NCBI GenBank assembly: GCA_964497315.1
Contig: CAZCCH010000015.1
Location: 1-33,743, forward strand
Length of the DNA: 33,743 nucleotides
Direction of reading: 5' to 3'
DNA from: an uncultured Planctomycetia bacterium
GTDB lineage: Bacteria > Omnitrophota > Gorgyraeia > Taenaricolales > CAZCCH01
Positions 2,410 through 29,113 of the stretch are shown piece after piece. Both the position numbers and the translations under genes were made by a program. Positions within the stretch are counted from its first letter, which is position 1; each line of letters opens with the position of its first letter. The notes under the pieces were generated by a model. The model worked only from the letters and a program-made list of their open reading frames with translations, did no database searches and had not been told where the DNA came from.

Positions 2410-2422
2410 AAGAGGAGGCAGC

Positions 2423-3454: not shown

Positions 3455-3455
3455 A

Positions 3456-5398: not shown

Positions 5399-5405
5399 TG
5401 CATTT

Positions 5406-9433: not shown

Positions 9434-9448
9434 GGAGGCTGGTATAAA

Positions 9449-9928: not shown

Positions 9929-9941
9929 CTAGAAGGCTGCT

Positions 9942-10403: not shown

Positions 10404-10423
10404 GCGAAGGGGGGTGAGAGTTA

Positions 10424-10711: not shown

Positions 10712-10720
10712 GCTAATAGC

Positions 10721-10768
10721 AGGGGCTGTCCTAATTGAGAAATCATCTACAGGGCAGCCCCTATTTTT
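10721..10768 (+). terminator. Rho-independent terminator
   Basis: 12-bp GC-rich stem, AGGGGCTGTCCT (10721-10732) pairing with AGGGCAGCCCCT (10751-10762) with one G-U pair, followed by ATTTTTAT. Confidence 0.6.
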
Positions 10769-10810
10769 ATCTTTTTGATATGCCTTTTTTAAAAGGGTAA
10801 TATATATAAT

Positions 10811-11575
10811 ATGTTAGAGCAAGGAAAAATTAAACAAATAGCCCAGTTTTTAAAAAAGTGTAAAAATATTCTGTTTATTACAGGTGCTGGTATTTCCGCT
10901 GATTCAGGGCTACCCACCTATAGGGGTATTGGTGGATTATATAATGATAAAACTACAGATGAAGGGATTCCTATAGAAATGGCCTTGGCAGGAGAGACGC
11001 TTGAGAAACAACCTTTGGTTACCTGGAAGTACCTTGCCCAGATAGAAGAACGCTGCCGTTATGCTAAATACAATCGTGGTCATACAGTTATAGCTGAAAT
11101 GGAGAAACATTTCCCGCGCGTCTGGGTACTTACACAAAATATAGATGGGTTTCATCATCATGCTGGTTCGAAAAATGTTATTGATATCCATGGTGACATG
11201 CATGATATAATATGTACAAACTGTCAATGGCAAGAAACAGTTAAAGATTATAGCGAGATAAAAATCCCACCTTATTGCCCTAAGTGCGACACAATCGCAA
11301 GACCTAAGGTAGTATTTTTTGGGGAAATGCTACCCGTTGATAAGTTAGAGCTTTTAGGTAAAGAACTTCTAAAAGGATTTGATATATATTTTTCAGTAGG
11401 AACAACAAGTGTTTTTCCATATATCCAACAGCCAATTTTGGATGCAACATCAAAGGGATTGACTACCGTTGAAATTAACCCTGATGAAACAGCGGTATCG
11501 CATTTGGTGGATATGAAAGTTTCTGCGGGAGCTGCTGAAACACTGAATGAAATTTGGAAAGAATACAACAAATAG
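10811..11575 (+). CDS. cobB: NAD-dependent protein deacylase (Sir2 family)
   Basis: FITGAGISADSGLPTYRG, TQNIDGFHHHAG, IHG, a Zn ribbon CTNC...CPKC, and RPKVVFFGE. Confidence 0.92.
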   Translation: MLEQGKIKQIAQFLKKCKNILFITGAGISADSGLPTYRGIGGLYNDKTTDEGIPIEMALAGETLEKQPLVTWKYLAQIEERCRYAKYNRGHTVIAEMEKHFPRVWVLTQNIDGFHHHAGSKNVIDIHGDMHDIICTNCQWQETVKDYSEIKIPPYCPKCDTIARPKVVFFGEMLPVDKLELLGKELLKGFDIYFSVGTTSVFPYIQQPILDATSKGLTTVEINPDETAVSHLVDMKVSAGAAETLNEIWKEYNK

Positions 11576-11584
11576 TCTTTAAAT

Positions 11585-11878
11585 ATGAAAGGCAAAAAGA
11601 AAACTTCTGATAACGTTCGCTATGCAAAGCTTCAAGAGGCGCAATCCATTGAGTATGAAAATAAATGTATTCGTTGTGGGGCTTGTTGTGGAGCATTTGA
11701 TGGTGATCCATGTGAAGACCTTAAAAGGCTAAAAAGCGGCAAATATACCTGCGCGGTTTATAAAAAGCGCTTCGGTGATCATAAGACAAAAAAGGGTGAA
11801 GTAATAGAATGTGTGCCTATCCGTGAAATCCTGCATATCAACTGGCCTGGCAATCACCTTTGTGCTTATAAAAGATAG
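11585..11878 (+). CDS. YkgJ/UPF0153-like Cys-rich zinc/iron-chelating protein
   Basis: The CIRCGACCGAF (CxxCxxCC) signature near the N-terminus is typical of the YkgJ family. 97 aa. Confidence 0.5.
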   Translation: MKGKKKTSDNVRYAKLQEAQSIEYENKCIRCGACCGAFDGDPCEDLKRLKSGKYTCAVYKKRFGDHKTKKGEVIECVPIREILHINWPGNHLCAYKR

Positions 11879-11952
11879 AATTATTTTTCTTTCTTGATAG
11901 GATTCGGCCGTAAGTGATATAATATTACCACTATAATAGGGAGAGAGTAAAA

Positions 11953-12225
11953 ATGGGTGAGATAAAGGTGTCAAAGCCAAGCAATGAAGAACTTGAAGGA
12001 ATGGGAGTTTTTACCTGGCCTATATGGGAGAAAGAGGTTTCAAGGTTTGATTGGCATTATGATGATAAAGAGACCTGCTATTTGCTTGAAGGTAAGGTAG
12101 TTGTAACATCTAAAGATGGTGACTCTGTCAATTTTGGAGCAGGTGACTTAGTGGTTTTCCCCAAGGGCTTAAGTTGTTTTTGGGATATAAAAGAAAGCGT
12201 TAAGAAGCATTATAATTTTGGTTAG
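11953..12225 (+). CDS. Cupin domain protein (DUF861/Cupin_3-like)
   Basis: FTWPIWEKE...FDWHYDDKETCYLLEGKVVV...GDLVVFPKGLSCFWDIKESVKKHY matches the small EutQ/ureidoglycine-hydrolase-type cupin pattern. Preceded by a TTGATA-18-TGaTATAAT promoter-like site (11894-11923). Confidence 0.78.
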   Translation: MGEIKVSKPSNEELEGMGVFTWPIWEKEVSRFDWHYDDKETCYLLEGKVVVTSKDGDSVNFGAGDLVVFPKGLSCFWDIKESVKKHYNFG

Positions 12226-12234
12226 AAGTTTTTT

Positions 12235-14562
12235 ATGCGAAACCTACAAAACAGACAAAATAAGACATTTATCTTAAAACCTCCTGGGACGTATAAAACT
12301 AAACGCAAGGAGCGTCTAATTAAACCTACCAAACGAAAACCATCCATAAAGAAAAAAATCACTGTAATATTTCTTCTTGTATCAATAGCATTATGCTCTG
12401 ATTTATTTGCAGAAAGGCCAAGCTATGCAAATCAGCGCCGACCTAAAATTGGATTAGTCTTAGGTGGCGGTGGTGCTAGGGGTGCTGCACATGTAGGGGT
12501 ATTAAGGGTTTTAGAAGAAAATAGAGTACCGATAGATTATGTTGTAGGTACTAGCATGGGTTCTATAGTAGGTGGTTTGTATGCATCGGGCGTTTCCGTA
12601 GAAGAGCTAGGGGAGATATTTGAATCTATTGACTGGAAAGGCCTCTTTACAGATAGGCCATCACGCAAAGATTTGCCTTTTCGTCATAAGCAAGACAGAA
12701 GAAAACTAATTGATTTTGAAATGGGTTTTAATAAAGGGAAATTGTCTATGCCTAAAGGTATTATTGCAGGTCAGAAGCTAGAATTTATTTTAAAGTCAAA
12801 AACCCTGCATGTTACAGGCGTTGAAGATTTTAATCAACTTTCAATTCCTTATAGGGCCGTAGCCGCTGATATTGAAACAGGCCAAAAGGTTGTTTTAGAT
12901 AGAGGCAATCTTGCTGAGGCGATAAGGGCCAGCATGTCAGTACCAGGTGTGTTTTCTCCTGTTGAGATAGATAATCATATATTAGTAGATGGCGGGATTG
13001 TGGATAATTTACCTGTGGATGTAGTGCGGGATATGGGTGCTGATATCGTTATCGCGGTTGATGTAGGTACAAAGCTCACTAAGCGCGAACAGCTAAAATC
13101 CGCCCTAGATATCTCCATGCAGGTAATAAGTATTTTAACCTTACAGAATGTTAATGAGCAAATTTCTAAGCTTACCAAAAAAGACTTATTAATTACACCC
13201 GAGCTAGGTGATACCTCTTCTTCGGATTTCCATAATGCTCCAGAGATTGTTAAGATTGGAGAGGAATCGGCACGTAATTTTACAAAACAACTAGAGAGAT
13301 ATTCTGTTTCAGATGAGGAGTATCAAATCTTTTTAACAAAACAAAGAAAAAAAGAATTAAAATCAATAAAGATTGATTTTATGGAGGTTACTTCTACGGG
13401 AGGGGCGGCACCTCAAAGGATACAGGCAAAGGTAAAGACAAAGTCAAATACAGAATTAGACCTTGATGTCCTTCAGGAGGATTTAACACGCATATATGCA
13501 ATGGGGGAGTTTGAAAAAGCAGATTTTAAAATTCTTGAAAAACAAGACAAGACAGGTCTTTTAATTAATACTACGGAAAAATCCTGGGGTCCTAACTATT
13601 TACGTTTTGGGCTAAATATCACAGACGATTTTGAAGGTGATAGTTATTATAATTTTCTTACGGAATATACCCGCACACAAGTTAACGCACTTGGTGCTGA
13701 ATGGAAGACTGAGGCCCAGATAGGCAGAACGCGCAAGGTGCTCACTCAATTTTATCAGCCGTTGGATTATGCAGACCGTTTCTTTATTGTACCTAGTATC
13801 GAATACAGCCGTAGCGTTTCAGATATATTTGAGGGTGATACCCGCACAGCGCAATACAAATTAGCCTACTTGCAAGGAGGTCTTGACGCTGGTATAAATA
13901 TAGGGACTTGCGCATTGGGTAAAATAGGAATTGTAAGGGGTAATACGGAGGCAGGTCCACTTGTAGGTGGTGAGAGCTTGCCGGAATTTAATATTGATAC
14001 AGCTGCATTAACAAGTGAGGTTATATTTGATCAAATAGATGATTCAAATTTTCCTAAATATGGAATAACATCTGATGCTTATCTTTTTCTATCGCAAAGA
14101 GGACTCGGCGCTGATGAAAGTTATAAAAAGTTACAATTCCAAGCAATTAAGGCAACTACCTTTGGTGGTAGACATACCTTCCTTGCAGATATAGAAGGTG
14201 GGGCAAACCTAGGAAAAGAAATACCATTTTATGATGAATTTACAATAGGTGGTTTTTTATCCTTGTCTGGCTATAGAAAAGGCCAATTAAGAGGGCAGTA
14301 TTTTGGTTTAGGGAGGCTTGTATATTATTATAAGGTTGCTAATGCGTCTTCCGGGTTGGCAGATGCTATTTATATTGGTGGTTCTGCTGAGAGTGGAAAT
14401 GTATGGGATAAGAGCAATGAGATTGAAATTGGCAATTTACTCCATGGTGGTAGTGTGTTTTTAGGTGTTGACAATATCTTTGGCCCATTGTATTTAGGGT
14501 ATGGCCTTGCTGAAGATAGTGAAGAGGGAAGGTTTTATCTATTTTTAGGTCAAACATTTTAA
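12235..14562 (+). CDS. Patatin-like phospholipase fused to a POTRA/Omp85-type beta-barrel (PlpD/type Vd autotransporter-like)
   Basis: GLVLGGGGARGAAHVGVL oxyanion loop, GTSMGS lipase serine and DGGIVDN catalytic Asp. The C-terminal ~300 aa are beta-strand-rich and end GQTF (aromatic terminus), as in surface-antigen/BamA-type barrels. Confidence 0.88.
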   Translation: MRNLQNRQNKTFILKPPGTYKTKRKERLIKPTKRKPSIKKKITVIFLLVSIALCSDLFAERPSYANQRRPKIGLVLGGGGARGAAHVGVLRVLEENRVPIDYVVGTSMGSIVGGLYASGVSVEELGEIFESIDWKGLFTDRPSRKDLPFRHKQDRRKLIDFEMGFNKGKLSMPKGIIAGQKLEFILKSKTLHVTGVEDFNQLSIPYRAVAADIETGQKVVLDRGNLAEAIRASMSVPGVFSPVEIDNHILVDGGIVDNLPVDVVRDMGADIVIAVDVGTKLTKREQLKSALDISMQVISILTLQNVNEQISKLTKKDLLITPELGDTSSSDFHNAPEIVKIGEESARNFTKQLERYSVSDEEYQIFLTKQRKKELKSIKIDFMEVTSTGGAAPQRIQAKVKTKSNTELDLDVLQEDLTRIYAMGEFEKADFKILEKQDKTGLLINTTEKSWGPNYLRFGLNITDDFEGDSYYNFLTEYTRTQVNALGAEWKTEAQIGRTRKVLTQFYQPLDYADRFFIVPSIEYSRSVSDIFEGDTRTAQYKLAYLQGGLDAGINIGTCALGKIGIVRGNTEAGPLVGGESLPEFNIDTAALTSEVIFDQIDDSNFPKYGITSDAYLFLSQRGLGADESYKKLQFQAIKATTFGGRHTFLADIEGGANLGKEIPFYDEFTIGGFLSLSGYRKGQLRGQYFGLGRLVYYYKVANASSGLADAIYIGGSAESGNVWDKSNEIEIGNLLHGGSVFLGVDNIFGPLYLGYGLAEDSEEGRFYLFLGQTF

Positions 14563-15489: not shown

Positions 15490-16407
15490 ATGGATGGAAG
15501 AATGAAACCACATATTTTTAGCGATAAGGAAAAAATAATTAAAATCCTTGAGGCTACTGGAGTTTCGCGTTCTGAACTTGCCAGGCGCCTTGGGGTGACC
15601 TATAAGACTGTATATAGATGGTTGAATGAAGGAAGGATGCCACATCCGGTCCAATCTAGGGAAATTGAGCAGTTATTTAAAGAGCATATAGATTTAAGAA
15701 ATACTGTTTTTATATTAGCCAAAAAGGTAAAAAACCCTATAGAAATATTAGAGAATAATGAAGGGATACGAGATAGGTTTTTGGTGGAGATGACCTACCA
15801 TTCTAATGCTATAGAAGGTAGTCGCATGAGCAAAAAAGAAACAGAAATGGCCATTAAAGGCAAAAAGATAAAAGATAAAGAGCTATATGAAATCTTCGAG
15901 GTTGTAAACCACAAAAATGCCATGGAGTTTGCATTAGATAACATTAAGCCAAATTTCAAAATTGATGAGAATTACATTTTGAAGCTACATAGTATAGTGA
16001 TGTATAATTTTAATAATAAGCTACCGGGTAAATATAGGACAGGACCTGTAAATTTAATAGGTGCAGATGTGAAGTTGGCTTCAGCACAAGATGTTCCTCT
16101 AAAAATGGGCAAGTTAATCAAGTCTATTAATGATTATAGAGATGATCCAATAGTTAAGATTGCCAAAGATCACTATGAATTTGAAGTGACACATCCTTTC
16201 TTTGATGGAAACGGTAGGGTTGGAAGGCTTATTATAATGACGCAACTTTTAAGTAAAGGGTTTGCTCCTGCTATTATACGGGTTGAAGATAGATATAAAT
16301 ACTATTTTGGACTGGGAAGGGCTGATTTCGGAGATTATAATAATATCACACAGGTAGTTTGCGATGGTATTATAAAGGGATATGAGCTATTAAGCGGTGA
16401 AAAATAA
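15490..16407 (+). CDS. fic: Fic-domain protein with N-terminal HTH (class II, auto-inhibited)
   Basis: Fic active-site motif HPFFDGNGRVGR (16192-16227). N-terminal inhibitory motif SNAIEG ([ST]xxxE[GN], 15802-15819). HTH segment VSRSELARRLGVTYKTVYRWL. Confidence 0.9.
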   Translation: MDGRMKPHIFSDKEKIIKILEATGVSRSELARRLGVTYKTVYRWLNEGRMPHPVQSREIEQLFKEHIDLRNTVFILAKKVKNPIEILENNEGIRDRFLVEMTYHSNAIEGSRMSKKETEMAIKGKKIKDKELYEIFEVVNHKNAMEFALDNIKPNFKIDENYILKLHSIVMYNFNNKLPGKYRTGPVNLIGADVKLASAQDVPLKMGKLIKSINDYRDDPIVKIAKDHYEFEVTHPFFDGNGRVGRLIIMTQLLSKGFAPAIIRVEDRYKYYFGLGRADFGDYNNITQVVCDGIIKGYELLSGEK

Positions 16408-16408
16408 A

Positions 16409-16885
16409 ATGAAACATTCTCTAAAAACAGGATTTAGCTTTGGTTTAACTTCAGGTATCATAACAACGCTTGGTTTGATTGTAGGTCTGCATGCAGGAAC
16501 GCAGTCTAGGCTTGCAGTTATAGGTGGTATTTTAACAATAGCCATAGCAGATGCTTTTTCAGATGCATTAGGTATTCACGTCTCTGAAGAGGTAGAGCAT
16601 AAGCATACCCCGAAACAGATATGGGTTTCAACAGTGGCTACATTCGTAACTAAATTTGTTTTTGCAATGACTTTTGTCGTACCTGTATTGCTGTTTCAGT
16701 TAACAACAGCGGTTATTGTTAGTATTGTTTGGGGATTGTCCTTGTTGGGAGTTTTTAGTTTTTGGATTGCAAAGAAACAAAAAGTAAATGCCTTTAAAGT
16801 AATTGCAGAACATTTATTAATAGCAATTATAGTTATAGTTACAACGCATTACCTGGGTGAATTTATAAGAATGAGGTTTTGTTAG
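16409..16885 (+). CDS. VIT1/CCC1-like membrane protein (putative metal transporter)
   Basis: FGLTSGIITTLGLIVGL...IGGILTIAIADAFSDALGIHVSEE resembles the conserved VIT1 helix pair, followed by further TM helices. I took ATG 16409, just after the fic stop, rather than GTG 16397. Confidence 0.45.
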   Translation: MKHSLKTGFSFGLTSGIITTLGLIVGLHAGTQSRLAVIGGILTIAIADAFSDALGIHVSEEVEHKHTPKQIWVSTVATFVTKFVFAMTFVVPVLLFQLTTAVIVSIVWGLSLLGVFSFWIAKKQKVNAFKVIAEHLLIAIIVIVTTHYLGEFIRMRFC

Positions 16886-16917
16886 ATAAGATTATGAATA
16901 AAAAAGGAGATTTTGAC

Positions 16918-17406
16918 ATGCTTGTTCCTACAATAATTATGGGAATAATCGCATTTATTCTTCTTGCTATTGGATATAGTAAGGGACAGCACATAGCTGG
17001 TCTTAAATTAGCGTTTGGTACAATAGTTAAAATCATCCCGCTTCTTATTTTTGCCTTTATTATAGCTGGTATGGTAAGGAGTTTATTGCCGCAGGAAATT
17101 ATTGCTAAATGGATAGGCAAGGAGTCTGGGTTAAAAGGAATATTTATTGGAACGGCAGCTGGTGCAATTACACCCGGTGGACCTTATACATCACTTCCTA
17201 TAGTTGCTGGGTTTTTGCGTTCAGGTGCAAGTGTGGGGACAGTAGTTGCCTTTTTAACAGCATGGTCATTATGGGCAATACCACGCCTGCCCATAGAAGT
17301 AGGTGTCCTTGGCTGGAAGTTTGCCCTTATTCGCTTTGCAAGTACATTTTTCTTCCCACCTATAGCTGGTTTAATTGCTCAGGCATTTTACTCAGGATTT
17401 AAATAA
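16918..17406 (+). CDS. Putative permease (ArsP/DUF318-like, short form)
   Basis: Polytopic membrane ORF. GAITPGGPYTSLPIVAGFLRSGASVGTVVAFLTAWSLW resembles the predicted-permease family. ATG 16918 has an AGGAG SD 8 nt upstream, whereas the track start at 16879 is a TTG. Confidence 0.5.
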   Translation: MLVPTIIMGIIAFILLAIGYSKGQHIAGLKLAFGTIVKIIPLLIFAFIIAGMVRSLLPQEIIAKWIGKESGLKGIFIGTAAGAITPGGPYTSLPIVAGFLRSGASVGTVVAFLTAWSLWAIPRLPIEVGVLGWKFALIRFASTFFFPPIAGLIAQAFYSGFK

Positions 17407-18762: not shown

Positions 18763-18900
18763 TACTTTTATTTATAATGAGTTATATAATATAGTTAGCA
18801 AAACAAAAAGTAAGATTTTTACCCTTGCTTTTTGCCAATATTATGGTATACTTATATATTGATATAGTAAAATAAAAGCTAATTTTGGTAATATAGCCGT

Positions 18901-18987
18901 CCTCGACAAAGGTAAACTCGACCAAAAAGAGGTGGGGTTCGCAAAGCTGCGGGTCTAATTTTAAATAGATAGCCGGGCTGTCGAAGG
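18901..18987 (+). ncRNA. Candidate GEMM-I-like cyclic-dinucleotide riboswitch aptamer in the giant-gene leader
   Basis: Hand alignment to the V. cholerae Vc2 aptamer recalled from memory: GACAAAGG / UCGCAAAGCUGCGGGUCUAA / AUAGAUAGCCGGGCUGUCGAAGG versus GGCAAACC / ACGCAAAGCCUCCGGCCUAA / GUAGGUAGCGGGGUUACCGAUGG. A closing helix forms between CCTCGAC (18901-07) and GTCGAAGG (18980-87). Not verified with a covariance model. Confidence 0.5.
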
Positions 18988-19011
18988 AAACTATTTCGGC
19001 AGTCTTTTTTT
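18976..19011 (+). terminator. Intrinsic terminator / expression platform overlapping the 3' arm of the aptamer
   Basis: GGCTGTCGAA (18976-85) pairs with TTCGGCAGTC (18995-19004) around a 9-nt loop, followed by seven T. It lies 23 nt upstream of the giant-ORF ATG. Confidence 0.65.
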
Positions 19012-19033
19012 ATCTAAAAAATAGACTATTATT

Positions 19034-22000
19034 ATGAAACTATCAAACTCTAATATCCACAAAATTATATCAATAGCACTCCTTGTGACGTTTATGATGT
19101 CACTGATAGGGCCGGAGCTTGCCTTAGCTTCTTCTGAAACCCTTAGACCCCATGTTACATCAAGAAAAAAACCTCTTCTAAAAGAGATGATTGCAAGGTT
19201 TACTGAGTTGCAACGTCCTTCAGTAGCATCTAGTGCAGAAGACTTTAGAAAAGATGAAGTGCGCATAGTTAGAGAAATGACTGAAGCTGGACAGCTTTAT
19301 TTTCGCCATGAACCAGAAAAACCAAGTGCAATATACTATATACCATTTTTGCGATATAGAGCAAGGCTTACACGTTGTAGGGGTGTAGCTGATTATACCA
19401 GTGCTGTGTTGAATGAGAAAGATAGAAGGTTTTCTACATTTAAGAGTGAGCGCGATGGTTTTGAGCGTTGGTTTAGAACTTCCCAGGAAGGTTTTCCATC
19501 GGCAGCATTGTACGACATTGATGTTCATCCTCAAGACTTAAATGATGCCATTGCAGCACTCATAGAGCAGAAGACCAAAGAAAAGGACAATACCATTACT
19601 GTCAGGGCCTTCGGTTCTGGTTTACCGGCCTTACTTTTACCTGGAGATCCAGCTACACTTCTAGCAGGAGATGTTGAAATAGAAACTATTTTAAAGTTTA
19701 TATTATCAGGTCTAAGGCATACCAGGAATAAAGCAAAATGGACTGTGGTAGTTTATGTATATGATAAAAAGACAGCTTATTTAGGGCAACTGGAAAAGGT
19801 TCTTTTGGAAAAATTAGAAAACTCACCAATGCCATTTAATATTGTATTAAATCTTAGATATGGTGATATAGCAGATAGAGAGCAATACCCATATATGTTT
19901 GAAGAACAAAGTGACATTAATGTTTGCCGTAATATCACTCAAAGTGGTGAGAGTTTTTCTAAAGGAGATAGTATTTTTCATGGGCAATTAGTTAATAGCC
20001 TGTCACCTCATGGGTTTATTATACATGGTGCGCGTAGAAGGGGAGATAGGATTATATTAGCTTCTGATAGAGATGCTCTTAAGAGGTTAAGTGGCGATTT
20101 TCTGGATAGTAATTCTTCAGAAGATGAAGCTACTAGTAGGTTTTCAGAAATAGGTGCAATAGGTCACTTGGAAGAGGAAAGAAAAACAGAAGATCTTATT
20201 GCTGCATTGACTGCCTTTGATATTCCTTTTATACCCACAGAAAGCAATTGTGAATTTACAAGAATTTCCGCAGGTCATTCAAACCTTACGTATAATATTA
20301 AGCATAATGGCAAAAATAGGCATATTCTTCAACAAATGAGCACAATTTATGATGCAAATGCCCTTAATGCTAATCTGAACTTATTAGAACAGGCTCAAGA
20401 TGCATGGCTTAAGGAAGGCGCAGAAGATGAATACTGGCAGCCCGTTCATTATGTTAATGTCAAGGGCGCTTCTGATAAGCTATATTGTGATACAGCAGGC
20501 AGAATTTGGCGTTTAATGGATTATATTCCAGGAGAGGTTTTTGGAAAATTTAGTGATGTTCCTCAGAGTGATCGTAGAGAGATTGCCCAATCTCTTGGTA
20601 GGGCAATTGTTGTTTTTCGAAGAATGCTAGAATCAGTTCCTTTAGAAAGCTGGGAAAAGGATATGTCAGGTTTTCATGATCCACAATACTTTTATGCTTA
20701 TCTTCATTCTATTTGGCTGGGTCAGGAGGTGCCATTGAATTTTACTGATGGATCATCACATATGGTAGTTAGAGATCCTAGCGTAACAAGTGAATATTCA
20801 GAAAGAATAAATCTCTTAAAGAGAAAGATTGAAGATAGGAGACATATCTTAACTAGCTTAGATGAACTTGGCCAGGTTGTTTCACATGGAGATTTAAAGA
20901 TTGATAACCTATTCTTCCGAAAACACAAAGGCCGCTGGAAGTGCATATCTATTGCTGATTTAGATACGATACAACCTAGAAACGTCCTTACTGATCTTGG
21001 TGATGCACTGCGTTCTGCCGGCAACCCAGCTGGGTCAGAACCGAGAGCAATAGATGATGTAACAATAGATGTTGATGTGGTCACAAATATAATAAATGGA
21101 TACCTAGAAGCCACAGCAGGGTTTTATGATCACACAGAGGCAGAGCGCTTGAGACCACATACTATTGAGGCATTTAAACTTCTTCTGTATGGGCAGTCTA
21201 TGTGGTATTTAGCAGATGCACTTACTAATAGCGCATACTTTAATATAGGTGCAGAGAGAGCGCTATATAAGGCAGAGGTGCAGATGAGGGCATTGGAGCA
21301 GTTGGAAGAGTTAAGTCTAATTAAAGATGGCCCATTTGCTGATTTTGTCAAACCTGATGCCAGTAGGTTTGGGGAAAGGACTGCCGAAGAACGAATTGCT
21401 GCGCTGCGGGAAGATTTGGTGTATTATGAAGCAGCCGCGACAGCGTCTTCAGCACCTGATCAGGATTTTCCAGATGATATTTGTGATGTAGGTACAGGCG
21501 AAGCCCACCTGATGAATGAAGTCCACATTGCAGCTGATTCTGATGAGCGCCCTGAAAGAATAATTAGCGCATACACCGCTGGTCCTTGCCGGGCATATGT
21601 TATTAAAGGTAGAGTAAATGATGAGACAAGATTGTTTCTACGACATAGAGCTGCGGTAGAGGGCATACTTGATGATTTAAGAGAAGATATAGCCGCTTTA
21701 GAGAGAGCTGGCATGCAAGATAGAGAGGTTGTTTTTAAGCTTGATTTAAAGACGCAAGCCGGCCTGGAGGTCGTGAGGCTTGGATGGGTTTCTCCAGAAG
21801 AACTGAGGGAAAAAATTAAGGAAATATGCGGGCCTCGAATCTATACAGAAGAAGGCATTTTCCCACATGAAATTACTGATGTAATTGCAACCCAGGAAGG
21901 AGTAGTTATTTATTGCCCATATAATTCTAATGCCTCCAAGATTATCTTATGGCCAGAAAGCAAGGAAGGTGTATTCATGGATGCTGTATTGCCCAATGCA

Positions 22001-25000
22001 GAAGTCGTAGAGGATGAGGCATTTTCTGCTCAAAGCAGGTTTGGGGAAATGGCTGTTGATGCACTCAAGGGGAACATAAAGAGAGCGGTGTCTGTATTTA
22101 GGGATACGGCTATTGTAAAAAGTCCACAGTTAATAGAGGAAGACAAAAACAGAGTTTGGGTTATTAACAATATCTTTGAAGATAGATTCCTTCTAGATAG
22201 CGTAGTTTTAAAAGATCCAGACCCTAAACATGAAGAATATTTTTATGCTTCAAGAGAAGGGCTTGATATGTATGAGGCCCATTTTGAGAGTGACTATCCT
22301 CGCGTTGAAATAGCCCAAACAGTGATAATCGATAATCCGAAGGAAAATGATCTAGTTGGTACAAAAAGGGCATCACAGTGCCTTCCACTACTATTTGCTA
22401 ATATTCCTGATAACAAGCCCAACATGATAGGTTCTTCTCATATATTCACTTCGACAGACCCGACATTTTCATCCTTGGGTGATAAACTTCTTGACGCTGG
22501 ATATGAAAACCTAATTGTTGTAATTCCTCGTCCGAAAAAGCTTGGACGAACCGTAGCTCCATTCGCATTAAGAACATCTCAGTATGAGGAGGTGATAGCT
22601 AATATGCGAGCTAAAGGAATTACAGTATACGAGGTACCTTATCAAGACGTTTCAATAAGTGCTGCCGCAACAGCAGATGGTTTTGCGATATTCATAGAAA
22701 AATTCGTTGACCCCACAACAAAAAGGACAAAAGACATTGAAGAATTTGTTCTTCTTGAACCTATAAAAACATGGCAAGAATTCTCAAGTAGGTTTGGGGA
22801 GGTTGCTATTATTGAAGGTAATGCTGCACCGGAAGTTCTTCCGGCAACAGAGAATAGGATAGAGCTTGCGTTGAATATGCCTTCTGAAAGGGCTACGCAA
22901 ACAGGAACTGCCTGTATTAGACCCACGAAGGAAAGGGGATTTGCTGATGTATGGAGCCGCAGGGATTTTATGAAAGCCGGTGCTTTTGCTACGACTGTAG
23001 CAACTGTTTTTGGCAGTTTACCGAAGACCGGAGTTGCTGCTACGCCAGATGCTATTAAAGTCAAGGCAAAGGAGCTTTGTACACAATATTTAAAAGATGT
23101 TTGCGATGAGAAGATAACACTTGGACTAGATAATAGTTTAGGAACCTGGCGTGAAGTTCTCAAGGACAGGGAAGAATACGCCGACTTACTCAAGCCCGAT
23201 AATAATTATGCATTGCTTACTGCGTTTGTTTTTGACACGTTGTTTCCTGCGCTAGAGGAAGCTGCAAGCCGAACACGTGTCAGTGCCCATAACGCATCTA
23301 TAAATATAGAATTAGCCTTAATGAATCTCTTGGATAAAAAAGATGAAAAGGTCGAGGCATTTTTACGTCATACCTTAGCCAGGACCACTGACTCCTTGGT
23401 TAGAACAAGACGAATCCAGAATAAGGTAGAACGCGATAGACGAATTGGTATTGCACTGCAAAGACTGGAGAGCGCCTCTGCTTACATAGGGCCAGAGATT
23501 TCAGATAAGCTGGTTAGTATAGTCAAATTACACGATAGTTTAACGCAGCTTGGTCTGGAGCAAAAGGAAGAGATAGAAAGAGTATCCATGGAGATCAATA
23601 GTTTGATAATAGACCTAAATAAAATTCTAATTCCGCTTGGCTTATACTGCAGGGTTTCAATGAATGTAAGTCTGGGTGATGACAAAGAGCATATCTACAT
23701 CAAGTCGTTTAAAATAGAAAAAACCCGTTTATATAAAGCAACTGACGGCAAAGTTGTTAAGGTCTATATTGTAAAAGGGATAGATAACATAGCTATAACA
23801 AATGTCTTTGGTTTTCGCAGACTGGAAACAGACTATGCTGTAGTAATTTTAGATAATATAGAATCCAAAGCGAGAGACATAGAGGAAGTCCTAAAACATG
23901 GAAAATCTGATGCCCATAAGGATATAGAGAGCAGGCTGACTGCAATTGGGAAAGCAAGATTAGCAGACCTAAGGGTTTTACTTGTTGAGCTGGCAAAAAA
24001 GGAATTTAGTGGTTTGACCAGACAGCAAATAATGAATAAGATTCAAGTTTTAATCGAGACCCACGAGATAAGACATGTATTAGATAGGGGTAACTTTACA
24101 AGGGAAGAGCGCGATAAAAAAGAAGGTTCGGCTTTTATGGCAGAATTGATTCTGGCAGAATTGATTACAGGTACAGCTACATATTATAGTGTATTAAAAT
24201 GGGCTGAACATGTATTCAGAGGAGGAGAGCATGATTATGCCGCAAGGATGGTATTTGAAGGATTGATGAAAAAAGCAAAAGAGAAGGGATATGTAAATGC
24301 ATCCGTAAACCTGAAACATGTTAGCTTTAGAGAGTTGATAAAGACAGTAGAGACATTGCGCAGGCTAAGTAAGGGTGAAATTGCAGGTCTGGCAAGAGAG
24401 TCCTATAAAGAAATATTTGGTTTTGAATTTATAGATGCCTTGCCTGTCATTCAGCCTCCTGGTCGCTTTACCGAGCCAAAAAAGACAGCAACGTGTGAAA
24501 TAGCAATTAGAGGGAGAATGCATATTATACCCTCAGACTTGCTTGCCTATGAGCTATCAAACCTTTATAACGCAGTTAGGGGTAAGATTAATTTTACATT
24601 TAAGAAGGAGCTAGGAGACGATAGAGTTCTTGAAATGACTAATCCCGGGACAATAACTAATATTCTTAGCTTTGGACTGGGGCCTGGGGATATTCTAGAA
24701 GTTAGCGTGGAAGAGGACCTACCACGAGATGTGCAGGAAGAGGCATTGAATTACATTGAGGCTTTGTTTAATAGCTACCATATACTACAAGCAACTCAAT
24801 TGGCGCAGATGCATGGTGCTGAGCAGGCACGGATGGCTTTAGGTGGAACACCCTATGTTGATCTTGCCTCAGCAGAGCAGTATGGATTGGAGATAGTGCG
24901 TTCAGATCTATCTAGCAGTCTTTGGCCTGCATTAAGAAGACTAATAAGCATGTTGAAGCGTGATGTTGAGATTTCTCGTTTTACAGAAAGGGGAGATGAA

Positions 25001-28000
25001 ATACCCACTTCACCAGTCGATCCTGCAAGGTTTAGGGAAGATAGTAGGCTCATAGATGAGCGGGCAAGGGATATGCTGAAGGTGCTGTGTGAAAGCAGGC
25101 GCAGCCAGCCAACCAACACCAAAGCACGAAGGGCATTGGTGCGTTTAGAACACCTCGTGGATTCCAGATGGTCGTATGGTGAACAGTGGAGCGAAGTTAT
25201 CGATACATTGCGCGAAGCCGGACTCATCACCTCAGATACGGCAGGGTGGCTCGGCAGTTTGGATGATGAAGTTGTGCGCAGAACCATGTTCTATGTGACT
25301 GTGCGTTATCTTGACATAATGGAGCATGAAGTTTTATTTCACGGAACCTCACTGCATAACATAGACAGTATCAAGAAACATGGTCTGCACCCTGAGCATG
25401 TACCCCCGGGCAAAGAAGAACTTCAAAGGGTATTTGGCATAGTAGGCAAGGCGCTCGGAGAAGATCGCGCAATGGAGATTACAGAAGGTCAATTAAGTTT
25501 TGAATATGATCTAAGCCTTGCTAATTTTTACTTTGCTATCCTAGGCCCTGAGATGTTGCGAAGAGCGATAGGGGATTTACAAGAAATAAAGAAGCTAGGT
25601 TTTCCTGAAATTGATGAAGCAGATAGAAAATTTATAGAATATTTTCTTGAGCACTGGAATGATGGGTATCTTTCTTCAAACCAGCCATGCCTTCTGGCCG
25701 TACCGTTTAAGACAATCGTACAGTTTATGGATTTAGAGCAAGACGCTTACCAAAGGGATCGGACTAGGTTTCTGAAAAGGCCGCACGAATTTTTTAATGA
25801 TGTTATATTGCTTTACCTGTTTCCTTGGGAAACCTGGGTGGGGGAGGGTACATTGTTACCATTCCGCCTTCCAGCGCTTGATAAAATTGAAACAGCAATG
25901 CACGAACAAATGGCCGTTACCTTCCATGACGTGCATACATATTCCAGACCTAACTATGATCTGGGTGATATTTATGTTGTTACTGGTAAAAGAGATGCCC
26001 TCAATCTAGTACCGCTAAAACAAGTAGAAATAGATGAGCTTGAGAGAACCGCTGTTGTCCTCAGAGAAGTAAATCAAGAATGTCAAGAAAAACAAGGAGA
26101 AGTTTTCAATCGTAGCTTTTCTTCCCAGGAAGCACTTGATTTTTGCGCCGAGCTTCACAGCATTGCCCGGGAAGCCATTGCCAAGTCAAATTATGAGAGA
26201 ACCGATGGGTTATCAGGTGCTCGCTTTTCTGAGCAAGTTGAGTTTGTGGAGGATAAACTGGTCAGGGAACCAATAGAGGATGAAAATCTAACCTTGGACC
26301 AAGTGGAACAAATTGAAAGAGACAGACAGCAGATTGAAGCAGAATTGACTCGGCACTACGGGGATGCCGAGGCGTTTTTTGGAGAAGGACCACGTGATGG
26401 GATAAGAATTATTGCAACCACTGATGAAGAAGGCGAATTGATAGCAACTAGCCCCATTTATTATATAGCCCAAGGGGTAGCAATAAATGAGACCAGGCAA
26501 GAGGTATTGCTGAATTATCTTAATACGACTAGAGCGGGGATAGCAGAAGAAGGTTCGCGATATACGGTTTTTCATGAGATGGGTCACTGGGCTAATGAAA
26601 GTAGAGGTATTTCTAGTATAGTGCGGGAATTGATAGGTCCACAGATGGAGGAGATAGCGGCTTCGCATATTGAGAGGCATCCGGATGAATTGGGATTTTA
26701 CCTTGACTTGTATAATTCAAAGCTTAGAGAAGGTGAGATTCCTGTGGATAGGCTGCAAGAGTTACTGAAAGGCTGTTTAGTCGTCAAAGGCCTTACGCTT
26801 TTCGAGGATTGCTTGGTTGACAGGCAGTTATTAGAGTTAGCTCGCGCAGGAGATCTCGAAGGACTTGACAGAGAATTAATTGGTACAAGGAAAATACTTT
26901 TAGGCGATAAGCTAAAACAGCCAGATCTTTGTTGTCTCGCCATACTTAGATACAGGCTGCTTGAGGAAGTATATTCTCCAGATGATAGGACCAAGGTAGA
27001 TATTTTCCCGGATGACTTCAATCCAGAAAACTTTGGAATAAACGCAGAAATGATGAAGCAGATAGATGATGATGCGCGAGCGATGGCTGTGGCAATCAGG
27101 GGTGCGGAGCGCATGATAGCTAAATACGCGCCAGGAAAAATTGCGCCTCCAGGAGATTTGAGGGATTTAAAAGGCAGGCTGAAGTCATCTGTTGGAGATT
27201 TTATGCGACCATTGAAGAAATATCTTACCATTCCTGCGCTAATTTCTTATTTCAAGCTTAATCATACCCGAGTAGATCCCACGCGTTTCACCGAGGGTAC
27301 GGGTTCACTTAGTGCGGAGGGAAATTTGCCCGGCGATCAAACACTAGGTACTAGTGATTATTCCCCTGCCCGGTTTGTGGAAGGGGATGCCATTGCGCAA
27401 TGGCCTATTTCTATTGACGAGGCATTATTAAGAAGTGGTGAGTCTGCACGAGCTATTGCTGTAGAACCTGACTATGTTCCACCTTATGGAGTTTTAGCTC
27501 CTGGAGCTATTAATATTTCTGATTATCTCGCACTTGGCATGCTTGCTGCTTCAGGGATATCAAGTGAGCCGCAAGGGCAGGATGGGAAATTGAGCCGCAG
27601 GACGTTTCTTAAAGCTGCAGCCGCAGGAGCAGGCGTGGCAATTGGCAGCGCAGTAGTTCACAAGGTTCTAAAAAGCGATGATATAACACCGCGCATTTTA
27701 GATGATGCAGCCGATGAAAGATTAAGAAATGCTGGTAAGGCGATAAGTGCTAAATTCATGCATGTCTATGAAGAATACAAGGACAAAAATCCCGCCGAAA
27801 CAAAGCTGGTACGTGCACTTTTTAGAAAAATAAATGACCACAAGACAGAAAAGGAGATCATGCACCATCCTGAGCTTAAACACAAAAAAGATAACGTAGA
27901 CGTACTAATGGGTATAGGCGAACCTGCCGATGATAATGGTGAATCCCCTATCTATCTTTCATATAGCATACTGGGCCAACCCGATGAGATATTATGGGCA

Positions 28001-29113
28001 AAAATGGTCCACGAAGGATGGCATGCATATAATGAAATCCTCAAGAAGGCCAGTGGTGCAGCGGAGGCTATACGGCATGCACAAGATGAGATGCTTGCTA
28101 ATATAACCGAATGGGTTGAAAATCCCCAAAATCGCGATTCCATTAAAAGATATTTTAGCATTTGGGTAAATGAAGAGGAAATTGCCAATAGCTTGGAAAG
28201 AGCAGTTTTTGTTAGAGAAATAGGCGGTTCAGACAATGAGGCTATCGAAAGATTTGTGCAAAAAGCTATACAGCAAAATCCCAGGGCTCAGGCAGATACG
28301 GGCTCAGGCAGCAAAGAGAGAAAAGAGGCCTATGCGAGACATCTGAGAAGGTATGTAAGAGATCGAATACTGAGATATTATCGAATTCCCTCGTTACATG
28401 GTAGATTGCGATATATACTTAGTAGCTATTATTCACATGTAAAACCTGCTGTGTACATCGGGTTATTTCTAACAGAATTTTATGAAGGACGAGCTGATCA
28501 TCGAACTAGGACAACGAGCCCAGGCAGAAAGTTCTTCATAGGGCCAGATAGAATCGAACTAAATATAAGATCTCATGGAGCTAGTGGGCAGCAAAGGCTT
28601 ATTCTTACGCCTAAAGAGAATTTTTTAGAATGGGCATCGAACTGGGCAAATTCTGAGGAATATAAAAGATTGTTTGTGAAACCAGAAGGCCTTACGAAAA
28701 TGCGCGGTTCCCGCTTTTCCGAAGCCTCCCAAGCCATATTTGGCAAAATTGAGCAACCCACAGGCATAATAATGAAAGCAGATTTTGCTACTAAAATCTT
28801 TCCAGTTTTGCCAGAGTTAGCAGTCCACTTTGGCCAAAAGGTAACAATTGCTGTAGTGGGCCCTTCACAGCTAAAGGAGAGAATAACCAAAGTAAATGCA
28901 GTCTTGCCACATGATGTATCTATTATACTATGCGATACCATTGATGAAGCAGCCAAGGAGTTGTCTGAGAGAGGTATAGGCCTTATCAGATTACTCACCA
29001 GAAAAACAATAAAAGACCTTCCTTTGGTTCGTGAAACCCTCCTTATTACAGAGAAGACCCTACAGCTAATAGATGAGTTGAGATCCCGCAAAGAAATAGC
29101 TGGTGGGGCATAA
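19034..29113 (+). CDS. Giant (3,359-aa) multi-module secreted/membrane protein of unknown function
   Basis: Uninterrupted 10,080-nt ORF. N-terminal Sec-type signal (aa 1-32, ALA|SS). Internal kinase-like, HPr-like and HExxH segments, plus two internal twin-arginine signal-like segments. See findings. Confidence 0.9.
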   Translation: MKLSNSNIHKIISIALLVTFMMSLIGPELALASSETLRPHVTSRKKPLLKEMIARFTELQRPSVASSAEDFRKDEVRIVREMTEAGQLYFRHEPEKPSAIYYIPFLRYRARLTRCRGVADYTSAVLNEKDRRFSTFKSERDGFERWFRTSQEGFPSAALYDIDVHPQDLNDAIAALIEQKTKEKDNTITVRAFGSGLPALLLPGDPATLLAGDVEIETILKFILSGLRHTRNKAKWTVVVYVYDKKTAYLGQLEKVLLEKLENSPMPFNIVLNLRYGDIADREQYPYMFEEQSDINVCRNITQSGESFSKGDSIFHGQLVNSLSPHGFIIHGARRRGDRIILASDRDALKRLSGDFLDSNSSEDEATSRFSEIGAIGHLEEERKTEDLIAALTAFDIPFIPTESNCEFTRISAGHSNLTYNIKHNGKNRHILQQMSTIYDANALNANLNLLEQAQDAWLKEGAEDEYWQPVHYVNVKGASDKLYCDTAGRIWRLMDYIPGEVFGKFSDVPQSDRREIAQSLGRAIVVFRRMLESVPLESWEKDMSGFHDPQYFYAYLHSIWLGQEVPLNFTDGSSHMVVRDPSVTSEYSERINLLKRKIEDRRHILTSLDELGQVVSHGDLKIDNLFFRKHKGRWKCISIADLDTIQPRNVLTDLGDALRSAGNPAGSEPRAIDDVTIDVDVVTNIINGYLEATAGFYDHTEAERLRPHTIEAFKLLLYGQSMWYLADALTNSAYFNIGAERALYKAEVQMRALEQLEELSLIKDGPFADFVKPDASRFGERTAEERIAALREDLVYYEAAATASSAPDQDFPDDICDVGTGEAHLMNEVHIAADSDERPERIISAYTAGPCRAYVIKGRVNDETRLFLRHRAAVEGILDDLREDIAALERAGMQDREVVFKLDLKTQAGLEVVRLGWVSPEELREKIKEICGPRIYTEEGIFPHEITDVIATQEGVVIYCPYNSNASKIILWPESKEGVFMDAVLPNAEVVEDEAFSAQSRFGEMAVDALKGNIKRAVSVFRDTAIVKSPQLIEEDKNRVWVINNIFEDRFLLDSVVLKDPDPKHEEYFYASREGLDMYEAHFESDYPRVEIAQTVIIDNPKENDLVGTKRASQCLPLLFANIPDNKPNMIGSSHIFTSTDPTFSSLGDKLLDAGYENLIVVIPRPKKLGRTVAPFALRTSQYEEVIANMRAKGITVYEVPYQDVSISAAATADGFAIFIEKFVDPTTKRTKDIEEFVLLEPIKTWQEFSSRFGEVAIIEGNAAPEVLPATENRIELALNMPSERATQTGTACIRPTKERGFADVWSRRDFMKAGAFATTVATVFGSLPKTGVAATPDAIKVKAKELCTQYLKDVCDEKITLGLDNSLGTWREVLKDREEYADLLKPDNNYALLTAFVFDTLFPALEEAASRTRVSAHNASINIELALMNLLDKKDEKVEAFLRHTLARTTDSLVRTRRIQNKVERDRRIGIALQRLESASAYIGPEISDKLVSIVKLHDSLTQLGLEQKEEIERVSMEINSLIIDLNKILIPLGLYCRVSMNVSLGDDKEHIYIKSFKIEKTRLYKATDGKVVKVYIVKGIDNIAITNVFGFRRLETDYAVVILDNIESKARDIEEVLKHGKSDAHKDIESRLTAIGKARLADLRVLLVELAKKEFSGLTRQQIMNKIQVLIETHEIRHVLDRGNFTREERDKKEGSAFMAELILAELITGTATYYSVLKWAEHVFRGGEHDYAARMVFEGLMKKAKEKGYVNASVNLKHVSFRELIKTVETLRRLSKGEIAGLARESYKEIFGFEFIDALPVIQPPGRFTEPKKTATCEIAIRGRMHIIPSDLLAYELSNLYNAVRGKINFTFKKELGDDRVLEMTNPGTITNILSFGLGPGDILEVSVEEDLPRDVQEEALNYIEALFNSYHILQATQLAQMHGAEQARMALGGTPYVDLASAEQYGLEIVRSDLSSSLWPALRRLISMLKRDVEISRFTERGDEIPTSPVDPARFREDSRLIDERARDMLKVLCESRRSQPTNTKARRALVRLEHLVDSRWSYGEQWSEVIDTLREAGLITSDTAGWLGSLDDEVVRRTMFYVTVRYLDIMEHEVLFHGTSLHNIDSIKKHGLHPEHVPPGKEELQRVFGIVGKALGEDRAMEITEGQLSFEYDLSLANFYFAILGPEMLRRAIGDLQEIKKLGFPEIDEADRKFIEYFLEHWNDGYLSSNQPCLLAVPFKTIVQFMDLEQDAYQRDRTRFLKRPHEFFNDVILLYLFPWETWVGEGTLLPFRLPALDKIETAMHEQMAVTFHDVHTYSRPNYDLGDIYVVTGKRDALNLVPLKQVEIDELERTAVVLREVNQECQEKQGEVFNRSFSSQEALDFCAELHSIAREAIAKSNYERTDGLSGARFSEQVEFVEDKLVREPIEDENLTLDQVEQIERDRQQIEAELTRHYGDAEAFFGEGPRDGIRIIATTDEEGELIATSPIYYIAQGVAINETRQEVLLNYLNTTRAGIAEEGSRYTVFHEMGHWANESRGISSIVRELIGPQMEEIAASHIERHPDELGFYLDLYNSKLREGEIPVDRLQELLKGCLVVKGLTLFEDCLVDRQLLELARAGDLEGLDRELIGTRKILLGDKLKQPDLCCLAILRYRLLEEVYSPDDRTKVDIFPDDFNPENFGINAEMMKQIDDDARAMAVAIRGAERMIAKYAPGKIAPPGDLRDLKGRLKSSVGDFMRPLKKYLTIPALISYFKLNHTRVDPTRFTEGTGSLSAEGNLPGDQTLGTSDYSPARFVEGDAIAQWPISIDEALLRSGESARAIAVEPDYVPPYGVLAPGAINISDYLALGMLAASGISSEPQGQDGKLSRRTFLKAAAAGAGVAIGSAVVHKVLKSDDITPRILDDAADERLRNAGKAISAKFMHVYEEYKDKNPAETKLVRALFRKINDHKTEKEIMHHPELKHKKDNVDVLMGIGEPADDNGESPIYLSYSILGQPDEILWAKMVHEGWHAYNEILKKASGAAEAIRHAQDEMLANITEWVENPQNRDSIKRYFSIWVNEEEIANSLERAVFVREIGGSDNEAIERFVQKAIQQNPRAQADTGSGSKERKEAYARHLRRYVRDRILRYYRIPSLHGRLRYILSSYYSHVKPAVYIGLFLTEFYEGRADHRTRTTSPGRKFFIGPDRIELNIRSHGASGQQRLILTPKENFLEWASNWANSEEYKRLFVKPEGLTKMRGSRFSEASQAIFGKIEQPTGIIMKADFATKIFPVLPELAVHFGQKVTIAVVGPSQLKERITKVNAVLPHDVSIILCDTIDEAAKELSERGIGLIRLLTRKTIKDLPLVRETLLITEKTLQLIDELRSRKEIAGGA

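Follow-up and report, generated by a model that had tools for sequence, protein, structure and literature searches.

The stretch of DNA analysed here (the window; positions 1 to 33,743 of contig CAZCCH010000015.1, assembly GCA_964497315.1) contains a giant open reading frame (ORF) at 19034..29113. Coordinates refer to the forward strand unless marked (-). The ORF encodes a protein of 3,359 amino acids (aa), in which residue N starts at nucleotide (nt) 19034+3(N-1) according to the ORF list. The protein opens with a predicted Sec-type signal peptide, includes a kinase resembling the N-acetylhexosamine kinase NahK and is punctuated by a short repeated motif, and a riboswitch aptamer lies in the leader of its gene. 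The chain consists of roughly ten unrelated modules, of which the kinase is the third, and is not the two-part protein, a kinase behind a Sec signal, that a preliminary description had drawn. The identical 3,359-aa protein was found on five contigs from NCBI, JGI and ENA assemblies; other contigs of the same population were 100% identical and thus uninformative on conservation. Based on best matches rather than on a phylogeny, the locus is assigned to the Omnitrophota: the named matches to Dus (best 66% identity) were to Candidatus Omnitrophica/Omnitrophota, bar one labelled '[bacterium]'.

The pattern RFxE occurred 12 times in the giant protein, against 0.9 copies expected and a maximum of 5 in 2,000 shuffles, and was the commonest XYxZ pattern of the chain. 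The residue before it was always Ser, Ala, Thr or Gly, giving the consensus [S/A]-R-F-x-E. Division of the chain at the motifs gives pieces of 129-558 aa and two short spacers, 13 and 25 residues long, and internal comparison of the protein revealed no significant similarity between modules. Motif 1 (A-RFTE; aa 55-58, 19196..19207) stands shortly after the signal peptide. Module 2 (aa 59-372, 19208..20149; 314 aa) lies between the signal and the kinase, had no Pfam, NCBIfam or PDB match, and ends with motif 2 (S-RFSE; aa 369-372, 20138-20149). The kinase module (aa 373-781, 20150..21376), a predicted NahK-like kinase of the APH fold with a homology core at aa 389-763, ends with motif 3 (S-RFGE; aa 778-781, 21365-21376). 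Modules 4 and 5 (aa 782-1005 and 1006-1256, together 21377..22801) had no detectable family and both end in S-RFGE (22037-22048 and 22790-22801). Module 6 (aa 1257-1814, 22802..24475) carries an internal signal resembling those of the twin-arginine translocation (Tat) pathway and an HEIRH sequence (nt 24062-24076), and ends with G-RFTE (24464-24475). Module 7 (aa 1815-1985) and the 13-residue spacer after it occupy 24476..25039, the spacer lying between the tandem motifs S-RFTE and A-RFRE (24977-24988 and 25028-25039). Module 9 (aa 2003-2400, 25040..26233), with an LFHGTS..NI.SI..HG motif at aa 2088-2121 (nt 25295-25396), is closed by A-RFSE (26222-26233), and module 10 (aa 2401-2754, 26234..27295), with HEMGH at nt 26573-26587, by T-RFTE (27284-27295). 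The following Gly/Ser/Thr-rich spacer of about 25 residues (27296..27382) ends in the tandem copy A-RFVE (27371-27382). Module 12 (aa 2784-3230, 27383..28723) contains an internal Tat signal and HEGWH (nt 28010-28024) and ends with S-RFSE (28712-28723), leaving a C-terminal module without detectable family (aa 3231-3359, 28724..29113). The three HExxH motifs thus stand at aa 1677, 2514 and 2993.

Outside the kinase, the only Pfam or NCBIfam matches above cut-off were to the two Tat signals, beside a weak PARP/Tpt1 match at aa 2088-2121. In a PDB search with the whole 3,359-aa chain, the only solved proteins matching significantly were three NahK sequences. Defence-system and phage libraries gave no match, nor did a word-based search with aa 782-1811, which is a weak negative for a query this long. 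The G+C content at third codon positions (GC3) was 0.24 for module 2 and 0.28 for the kinase, and reached 0.39-0.41 for modules 9 and 10, compared with 0.28-0.31 in the flanking genes; this spread from 0.24 to 0.41 between modules suggests cassettes of different origin or age.

The motif was conserved as a peptide. Its Arg is encoded by AGG, CGC, CGT or CGG, and both Phe and both Glu codons are in use, which indicates that the constraint falls on the peptide and not on the DNA. Three sites have nearly the same 15 nt (AGT/AGC AGG TTT GGG GAA/GAG), while the other nine use different codons. When 23 sites from the giant protein and its relatives were aligned, conservation was limited to the five core positions, and R, F and E were kept at four of four orthologous boundaries despite a background identity of 36-61%. 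Apart from the family described below, no second ORF of at least 150 aa with two or more copies was present in the window or the compared loci, and a literature search for the motif returned nothing relevant. These properties are most simply read as those of a functional pentapeptide that delimits cassettes. A processing site is the favoured role, given the invariant core among varied codons and surroundings, the low-confidence linkers in which it stands, the tandem copies, and the fact that it brackets a complete protein. A DNA repeat or recombination site was rejected as the main explanation because of the varied Arg, Phe and Glu codons. Internal translation starts or Shine-Dalgarno sequences at the AGGTTTGGGGA sites were likewise discarded, as an ATG follows one site only and the spacing is wrong.

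The kinase module

The kinase elements quoted in the preliminary description (20240-21300, corresponding to aa 403-756 of the giant ORF) were all found where it had placed them, far beyond what chance would give. The nucleotide-binding elements of the N-lobe, SAGHSNLTY (aa 412-420) and ILQQMS (aa 431-436), lie at 20267..20341. The catalytic loop H618-G-D620-L-K622-I-D-N625 lies at 20885..20908, within SHGDLKIDNLFF, which starts at aa 617. The metal-binding elements IADLDT (aa 640-645) and DLGDALR (aa 654-660) follow at 20951..21013. All of these aligned to NahK by HMMER (NahK/module pairs GHINTTY/GHSNLTY, ILQRMN/ILQQMS, HNDTKLNN/HGDLKIDN, IIDLDT/IADLDT and DFGDSIR/DLGDALR), so that the catalytic His, Asp and Asn and the metal-binding Asp are in register with those of NahK, as is the GDxxR element.

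The suggested membership of Pfam APH (PF01636) was confirmed by a match over aa 408-672 (E 2.2e-10; 41.2 bits against a cut-off of 23.2), and the bilobal fold of that family was also recovered. With the kinase module alone, phmmer against the PDB retrieved NahK only (4ocu, 4wh1 and 4ocj; E ~1e-11). An AlphaFold2 model built from the alignment of homologues had a mean predicted local distance difference test score (pLDDT) of 88.2 and a predicted template modelling score (pTM) of 0.88, with pLDDT <50 confined to the first seven and last three residues, which belong to the linkers (the last ten-residue block had a mean of 51). Foldseek placed NahK first with this model (E 1.5e-16 to 2.8e-14, template modelling scores 0.73/0.83), followed by homoserine kinase at 5e-9. 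The likeness to NahK given in the preliminary description was thus correct, NahK being the closest solved structure in both sequence and fold, and the ATP-dependent small-molecule kinase fold was borne out as complete-looking. Judged from sequence and model, the module is apparently a complete and functional NahK-like small-molecule kinase; as such it is a new member of the known NahK/APH fold and ordinary by itself. By analogy with the nearest characterised relative, its substrate is probably an amino sugar or another sugar.

When 5.8 billion proteins were searched with aa 379-799, 24 matched. The best fourteen (E 1e-59 to 1e-96, 36-44% identity, 84-91% coverage, over aa 389-763) were stand-alone proteins of 388-414 aa without signal peptide, and those with named hosts came from metagenome-assembled genomes of Armatimonadota and Saganbacteria. 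The next group consisted of 362-aa APH-family proteins with 26-28% identity. From the missing signal peptide we infer that the stand-alone homologues are cytoplasmic. An alignment of 17 sequences had G414, Q433, H618, D620, K622, N625, D642, L643, D644, T645, D654, G656, D657 and R660 invariant. The kinase of the giant protein retained 70 of the 87 columns (80%) that are invariant among the twelve closest stand-alone proteins, and none of the 17 changed columns touched the catalytic loop or the metal site. When the giant protein was compared with seven loci of close kinase homologues by tblastn, the match was confined to aa 389-763. An apparent extension of the homology to aa 304 on loci L006/L007 was spurious, as it runs through a stop codon. 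The kinase therefore spans one whole stand-alone protein and fills the interval between motif 2 and motif 3 exactly. On these alignments, its origin is best seen in the uptake of an entire free-standing gene that encodes no signal peptide.

NahK of Bifidobacterium longum is a stand-alone cytoplasmic enzyme of 359 aa that serves the galacto-N-biose/lacto-N-biose (GNB/LNB) pathway (PMC8106489). No gene of this pathway (GH112 phosphorylase, GalT, GalE or ABC transporter) was found among the window genes. With an identity of only ~20% to NahK (PDB 4WH1-3, 4OCJ, 4OCU, 4OCV) and no such genes in the window, the module is not a NahK orthologue; it also differs in lying inside a 3,359-aa protein with a signal peptide. 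The stand-alone NahK-like phosphotransferases P0001-P0014 (390-414 aa) share with the module both the insertions relative to NahK and the invariant residues, but are free-standing, lack a signal peptide and the SRFxE motif, and have unrelated neighbours. AmgK belongs to the same APH-type phosphotransferase family. It is the anomeric kinase for N-acetylmuramic acid and N-acetylglucosamine in peptidoglycan recycling (PMC5371407). AmgK is cytoplasmic and, unlike the module, stand-alone. One weak match, P0024 (E 5e-8), joins a nucleotidyltransferase to an APH domain in the manner of a MurU-AmgK pair, which would fit a role of the kinase with cell-wall sugars.

Some neighbours of the stand-alone homologues were also recorded. 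On L006, the homologue P0002 is flanked by very large genes without known function at 1-5517 and 9261-12806; its neighbours encode >1,876 aa, 769 aa and 1,181 aa, the last with a weak match to the GH42 middle domain. On L001-L003, the homologues are followed by a gene for a 374-aa unknown protein whose start overlaps, with a gene resembling that of phosphoenolpyruvate carboxykinase nearby.

Signals, relatives and leader of the gene

The N-terminal signal (aa 1-32, 19034..19129) has the n-h-c layout of a Sec-type signal peptide: an n-region MKLSNSNIHK with Lys at K2 and K10, a 16-residue h-region IISIALLVTFMMSLIG, and a c-region PELALA (P27-E-L-A30-L-A32) that ends in a Pro-x-x-Ala-Leu-Ala cleavage-type site. 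It is the sole stretch of the giant protein with transmembrane-level hydrophobicity (Kyte-Doolittle 19-residue mean 2.0). The signal is shared with two relatives, P0044 and P0045, and 13 of its first 32 positions are invariant among the three proteins (M1, K2, K10, I11, S13, I14, L17, F20, S23, P27, A30, L31 and A32). This residue-by-residue conservation supports the ATG at 19034 as the true start, as well as a cleavable Sec-type signal; on truncated contigs, Met21 had been taken as the start by gene callers. The Sec signal described earlier is accordingly upheld as a prediction. The placement of the kinase behind it stood in part: the N-terminus is signal-like, but the kinase begins 340 residues further on, past a 314-aa module and two SRFxE motifs.

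Two further signals were detected inside the chain. In module 6, SRRDFMK (aa 1308-1314) is followed by AGAFATTVATVFGSL (aa 1306-1339 in all, 22949-23050), and in module 12, SRRTFLK (aa 2854-2860) is followed by AAAAGAGVAIGSAVV (aa 2852-2880, 27587-27673). The second matched the Pfam TAT_signal family with 23.9 bits against a cut-off of 22.7 and TIGR01409 with 25.1 bits against 16.7; TIGR01409 reported two stretches, one at aa 2852-2874 and another placed at aa 1306. Each Tat signal lies 52-72 residues past an SRFxE motif and upstream of an HExxH motif. Both are internal, and the chain would have to be cut at the SRFxE before them to bring them close to an N-terminus. The second is kept in P0044 as RRxFLK, in a region whose conservation is no higher than the 60% background identity.

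An exhaustive HMMER search with aa 2003-3202 among 1.84 billion representative proteins recovered a fragment of the giant protein and four relatives only. P0045 has 1,706 aa; P0044 has 683 aa, followed by an in-frame TAG and then a 434-aa ORF in the same frame. P0045 and P0044 with its continuation have 8 and 4 copies of the motif where 0.5 and 0.3 are expected, and the first copy in both, at the place aligned with motif 1, reads HFAE. Their other modules differ from those of the giant protein and matched no Pfam family; by eye, some have a G-x-x-G-K-S sequence, a possible P-loop, and some have hydrophobic segments. Homology between the giant protein and its relatives consists of single modules that end at motifs. 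Module 10 is 36-39% identical to aa 801-1155 of P0045, where the block likewise lies between two RFAE motifs, and aa 2414-2754 of the giant protein matched L014 3197-4261 at 36% identity, from RFAE to RFAE. In module 12, aa 2777-3230 matched L015 1609-2970 at 61% identity, again from RFAE to RFAE. P0045 and the continued P0044 have a C-terminal module in common (36% identity) that is dissimilar to that of the giant protein. The remaining relatives, P0046 and P0047, share only module 9 with the giant protein and lack the motif. No relatives of the giant protein were found in genome and metagenome contig collections when the whole protein or an alignment of the conserved modules was used as query, and the motif-bearing family appears small.

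On L015/L016, the relative of module 12 has an in-frame TAG at 2293-2295, right after HEGWHAYNKTLK, and the homology goes on in the same frame. The TAG was seen in two assemblies and could be a nonsense allele, a pseudogene or a site of read-through.

Module 9 is a possible Tpt1/ADP-ribosyltransferase-like domain. Its family matches were weak and covered only ~33 aa (PARP, E 0.04; NCBIfam Tpt1, E 0.007), and against the PDB it gave six weak matches, all to RNA 2'-phosphotransferases (best E 0.11). Profile searches of the PDB with modules 9 and 10 gave nothing significant, and an AlphaFold2 model of module 9 from a three-sequence alignment (pLDDT 51) was too poor for a fold search. The module is homologous to parts of P0046 (31% identity) and P0047 (28%), and the LFHGTS-type motif is kept in both. 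As a separate observation, the L-F-H-G-T-S..N-I..S-I..H-G sequence resembles the NAD-binding His region of Tpt1/KptA and of PARP-type ADP-ribosyltransferases.

The leader of the giant gene contains an aptamer of the cyclic di-GMP (c-di-GMP) class I riboswitch at 18901..18985, 49 nt before the ATG. It matched RF01051 over the full model (1-87) with 43.5 bits (gathering threshold 35; E 1.8e-5), and its sequence was identical in other assemblies of the same population. The variant model c-di-GMP-I-GGC scored 41.8 bits, below its cut-off of 59. The identity of the ligand as c-di-GMP, predicted from these matches, is not certain. A terminator-like hairpin of 12 pairs followed by TTTTTTT (18975..19015) overlaps the aptamer on its 3' side, as a putative expression platform. 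The hairpin is present in the minimum-free-energy fold of 18895-19036 (z-score -3.8) and dominates the ligand-free fold. The overlap of aptamer and terminator points to an ON switch, in which ligand binding would prevent termination. Upstream, a promoter-like TTGCCA-17-TATATT (18832..18860) scored 10 of 12 in a consensus scan, with such sites occurring in the region at chance number. A second c-di-GMP-I match (L017 644-763 (+); 36.6 bits against 35) lies upstream of the gene for P0047 (2,809 aa). The GTG start called for P0047, at 719, falls inside that aptamer, and an ATG at L017 840 leads to a signal-peptide-like N-terminus, MRHLAQNNNVIFKLITIVIVCLFAVNNFSIAAE. The literature search gave nothing relevant on c-di-GMP riboswitches or polyproteins in Omnitrophota, and, as far as it reached, a gene of the giant type is new for the c-di-GMP-I riboswitch class and adds a new gene type to those under its control.

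Proposed export and processing, and alternative readings

We tentatively propose, at somewhat less than even confidence, that the giant gene specifies a c-di-GMP-induced, exported multi-enzyme precursor that is then cut at its motifs. Binding of c-di-GMP to the leader riboswitch would block the terminator and turn the gene on, and the conserved N-terminal signal peptide would bring the 3,359-residue chain to the Sec translocon. Cutting at the twelve [S/A]-R-F-x-E linkers would yield about ten separate proteins: the kinase, the possible Tpt1/ADP-ribosyltransferase-like module, three HExxH modules and several of unknown fold. The released proteins would act outside the producer's cytoplasm, and motif-bounded cassettes would have been swapped between related precursors over evolutionary time. 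Since the kinase needs ATP, its likely site of action would be on or inside another cell, prey or host. An exported kinase is plausible from its sequence context, and if it were delivered outside, it would be a rare exported sugar-kinase effector; the interest lies in this placement and not in the kinase itself. Export and cutting are put first because of the conserved Sec signal, the variable cassettes, the c-di-GMP control and the predicted lifestyle of the phylum, features more reminiscent of secreted multi-effector proteins (MARTX) and of polymorphic-toxin junctions than of a metabolic enzyme set.

Several observations weigh against this proposal. Neither the periplasm nor the cell exterior offers ATP. 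The two internal Tat signals are unexplained if the whole chain leaves via Sec, and such signals function solely on the cytoplasmic face of the membrane. No protease with the specificity of the motif was identified, no delivery apparatus or secretion-system gene was recognised among the scanned ORFs of the window, and no immunity gene was evident. The HExxH motifs are bare, without family or fold support from Pfam and PDB searches, and no HExxH module is common to all three members of the motif-bearing family. These three proteins all come from JGI metagenome assemblies with nearby numbers, and the regions upstream of P0045 and P0044 yielded no riboswitch.

With two internal Tat signals and export of the whole chain, not all signals would be usable, and this conflict speaks for the main alternative, which we nevertheless consider rather unlikely: a cytoplasmic polyprotein cut at SRFxE within the cytoplasm, possibly co-translationally, whose products are routed separately. 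Sec would then export only the first peptide of ~23 aa, the Tat-tagged HExxH modules would fold, load metal and leave via Tat, and the kinase, module 9 and others would stay where ATP and NAD are available, so that the position behind a Sec signal would be a by-product of the one-ORF layout. All three kinds of signal would be used without conflict, and no other explanation accounts for the internal Tat signals, which score above curated cut-offs, would lie near new N-termini once the chain is cut (52-72 residues after a motif) and, in the second case, keep RRxFLK in a 60%-identical relative. That the kinase corresponds to a complete stand-alone protein without signal peptide also fits. However, shuffled module content and c-di-GMP control are typical of secreted or surface factors and not of housekeeping sets, a strongly hydrophobic N-terminal signal is expected to engage the translocon early, a distance of 50-70 aa from the new N-terminus is unusually long for Tat motifs, and the Tat region is no better conserved than its 60% background. 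A wider formulation, which we hold to be doubtful, is that of a bacterial polyprotein or 'operon in one reading frame': a riboswitch-controlled 10-kb ORF in which an [S/A]-R-F-x-E code would yield about ten proteins that are routed separately. The routes envisaged, equally doubtful, are a Sec-exported peptide, two Tat-exported metalloproteases, and enzymes, including the sugar kinase, that stay in the cytoplasm or are delivered to prey, with cassettes exchanged between genomes. If such a code were true, the larger giant proteins of Omnitrophota might be dissected in silico by it.

The same boundaries could arise without any cutting, if a giant surface or periplasmic protein stayed whole and SRFxE were a cassette-recombination junction, comparable with VENN and DPxGL, or a structural or docking linker; the kinase would then be inactive outside for lack of ATP, or active only after delivery. 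This seems improbable to us. Homology blocks do end at motifs, as they would at recombination junctions, three sites have nearly the same DNA (AGT/AGC AGG TTT GGG GAA/GAG), the GC3 range suggests a mosaic origin, and large uncut Sec-exported proteins are common. Yet the peptide core is invariant at the nine sites that differ in codons, R, F and E persist at all four orthologous boundaries over a background of 36-61% identity, and tandem motifs with spacers of 13 and 25 residues are easier to understand as processing sites than as recombination scars. An artefact, be it a mis-assembly or pseudogenes fused by lost stops with the kinase as a relic, is very unlikely, because the identical 3,359-aa ORF recurs on five contigs of independent assemblies. 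The in-frame TAG inside a module of the L015/L016 relative and the lack of a detectable family for most modules would agree with decay. Against it stand a 10-kb open frame that is not expected by chance in DNA of ~40% G+C, a kinase with all its catalytic residues and 80% of the family-invariant columns, and the conservation of signal and motifs in relatives.

Secreted proteins that string together several unrelated enzymes are known from a few toxin families. MARTX toxins are single secreted chains with several unrelated effector modules, separated by unstructured linkers that are cut for release, and their content varies by strain; they use type I secretion, have glycine-rich repeats, and are processed by an inositol-hexakisphosphate-activated cysteine protease that cuts after Leu. 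The giant protein resembles them in its modular layout and linker motif, its cutting being a prediction from sequence, and differs in its Sec signal and in another junction motif. No RTX or glycine-rich repeats and no C80 cysteine protease were found in it by Pfam or NCBIfam at E <=1. In polymorphic toxins, a short peptide such as VENN (CdiA) or PxxxxDPxGL (Rhs) borders swappable toxin cassettes of Sec-exported proteins, the cargo of which acts in the cytoplasm of another cell. Those toxins carry a single C-terminal cassette, with an immunity gene downstream, in contrast to the roughly ten serial motif-flanked cassettes without an evident immunity gene seen here. The leader has counterparts as well: c-di-GMP-I riboswitches control secreted or surface proteins such as Vibrio cholerae gbpA and Clostridioides difficile zmpI, likewise with a class I (GEMM-I) aptamer and a terminator in the leader of an exported-protein gene. 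The Streptomyces Rieske protein Sco2149, which is small and polytopic, uses both Sec and Tat, its Tat motif standing before the final transmembrane helix. In the giant protein, two Tat signals lie >1,300 and >2,800 residues into a soluble modular chain, and the locus is thus a case of Sec and Tat signals together in one chain.

Omnitrophota are ultra-small and possibly predatory bacteria, of which very large enzyme-studded proteins are a hallmark. Their giant 'archaeovorins' carry enzyme domains in huge signal-bearing proteins, for which processing was proposed with cleavage points unknown (bioRxiv 10.1101/2023.11.21.568195). They exceed 30,000 aa, with many transmembrane segments, C39/S8 peptidase domains and an adjacent type II secretion-like locus (bioRxiv 10.1101/2023.11.21.568195). 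The giant protein described here is from the same phylum and likewise holds cytoplasm-type enzyme domains in a very large protein with an N-terminal signal, but it is a tenth the size, has a single hydrophobic segment, lacks C39/S8 domains and has a defined, repeated junction motif. A motif at every module border makes a processing or junction code a directly testable hypothesis for chains in which no cleavage points are known. As a motif-punctuated, signal-led, riboswitch-controlled cassette protein, it is a variation on known multi-effector and giant-protein themes.

Flanking genes

The genes that flank the giant ORF are ordinary chromosomal genes. Although L015 shares synteny with the window, its motif-bearing gene is at a different position, directly upstream of a gene encoding a helix-turn-helix (HTH)-Fic protein. 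The HTH-Fic gene stands by an acetolactate decarboxylase cluster both in the window (15490-16407) and on L015 (3717-4778). In the place of the giant gene, L015 has a 173-aa ORF and a LAGLIDADG endonuclease gene. At 16397-17406 of the window, VIT1-like (162 aa) and ArsP-like (175 aa) ORFs each match part of their Pfam profile; on L015 the acetolactate decarboxylase gene has the VIT1 part joined to it, and the ORFs of the window may be split or remodelled. At 12235-14562, a patatin-like phospholipase is fused to an Omp85-type barrel in a protein of 775 aa, a layout that we take to be that of type Vd (PlpD-like) secreted lipases. At 31956-33701 (-), a 581-aa ORF without a Pfam family was at least 90% conserved in several assemblies.

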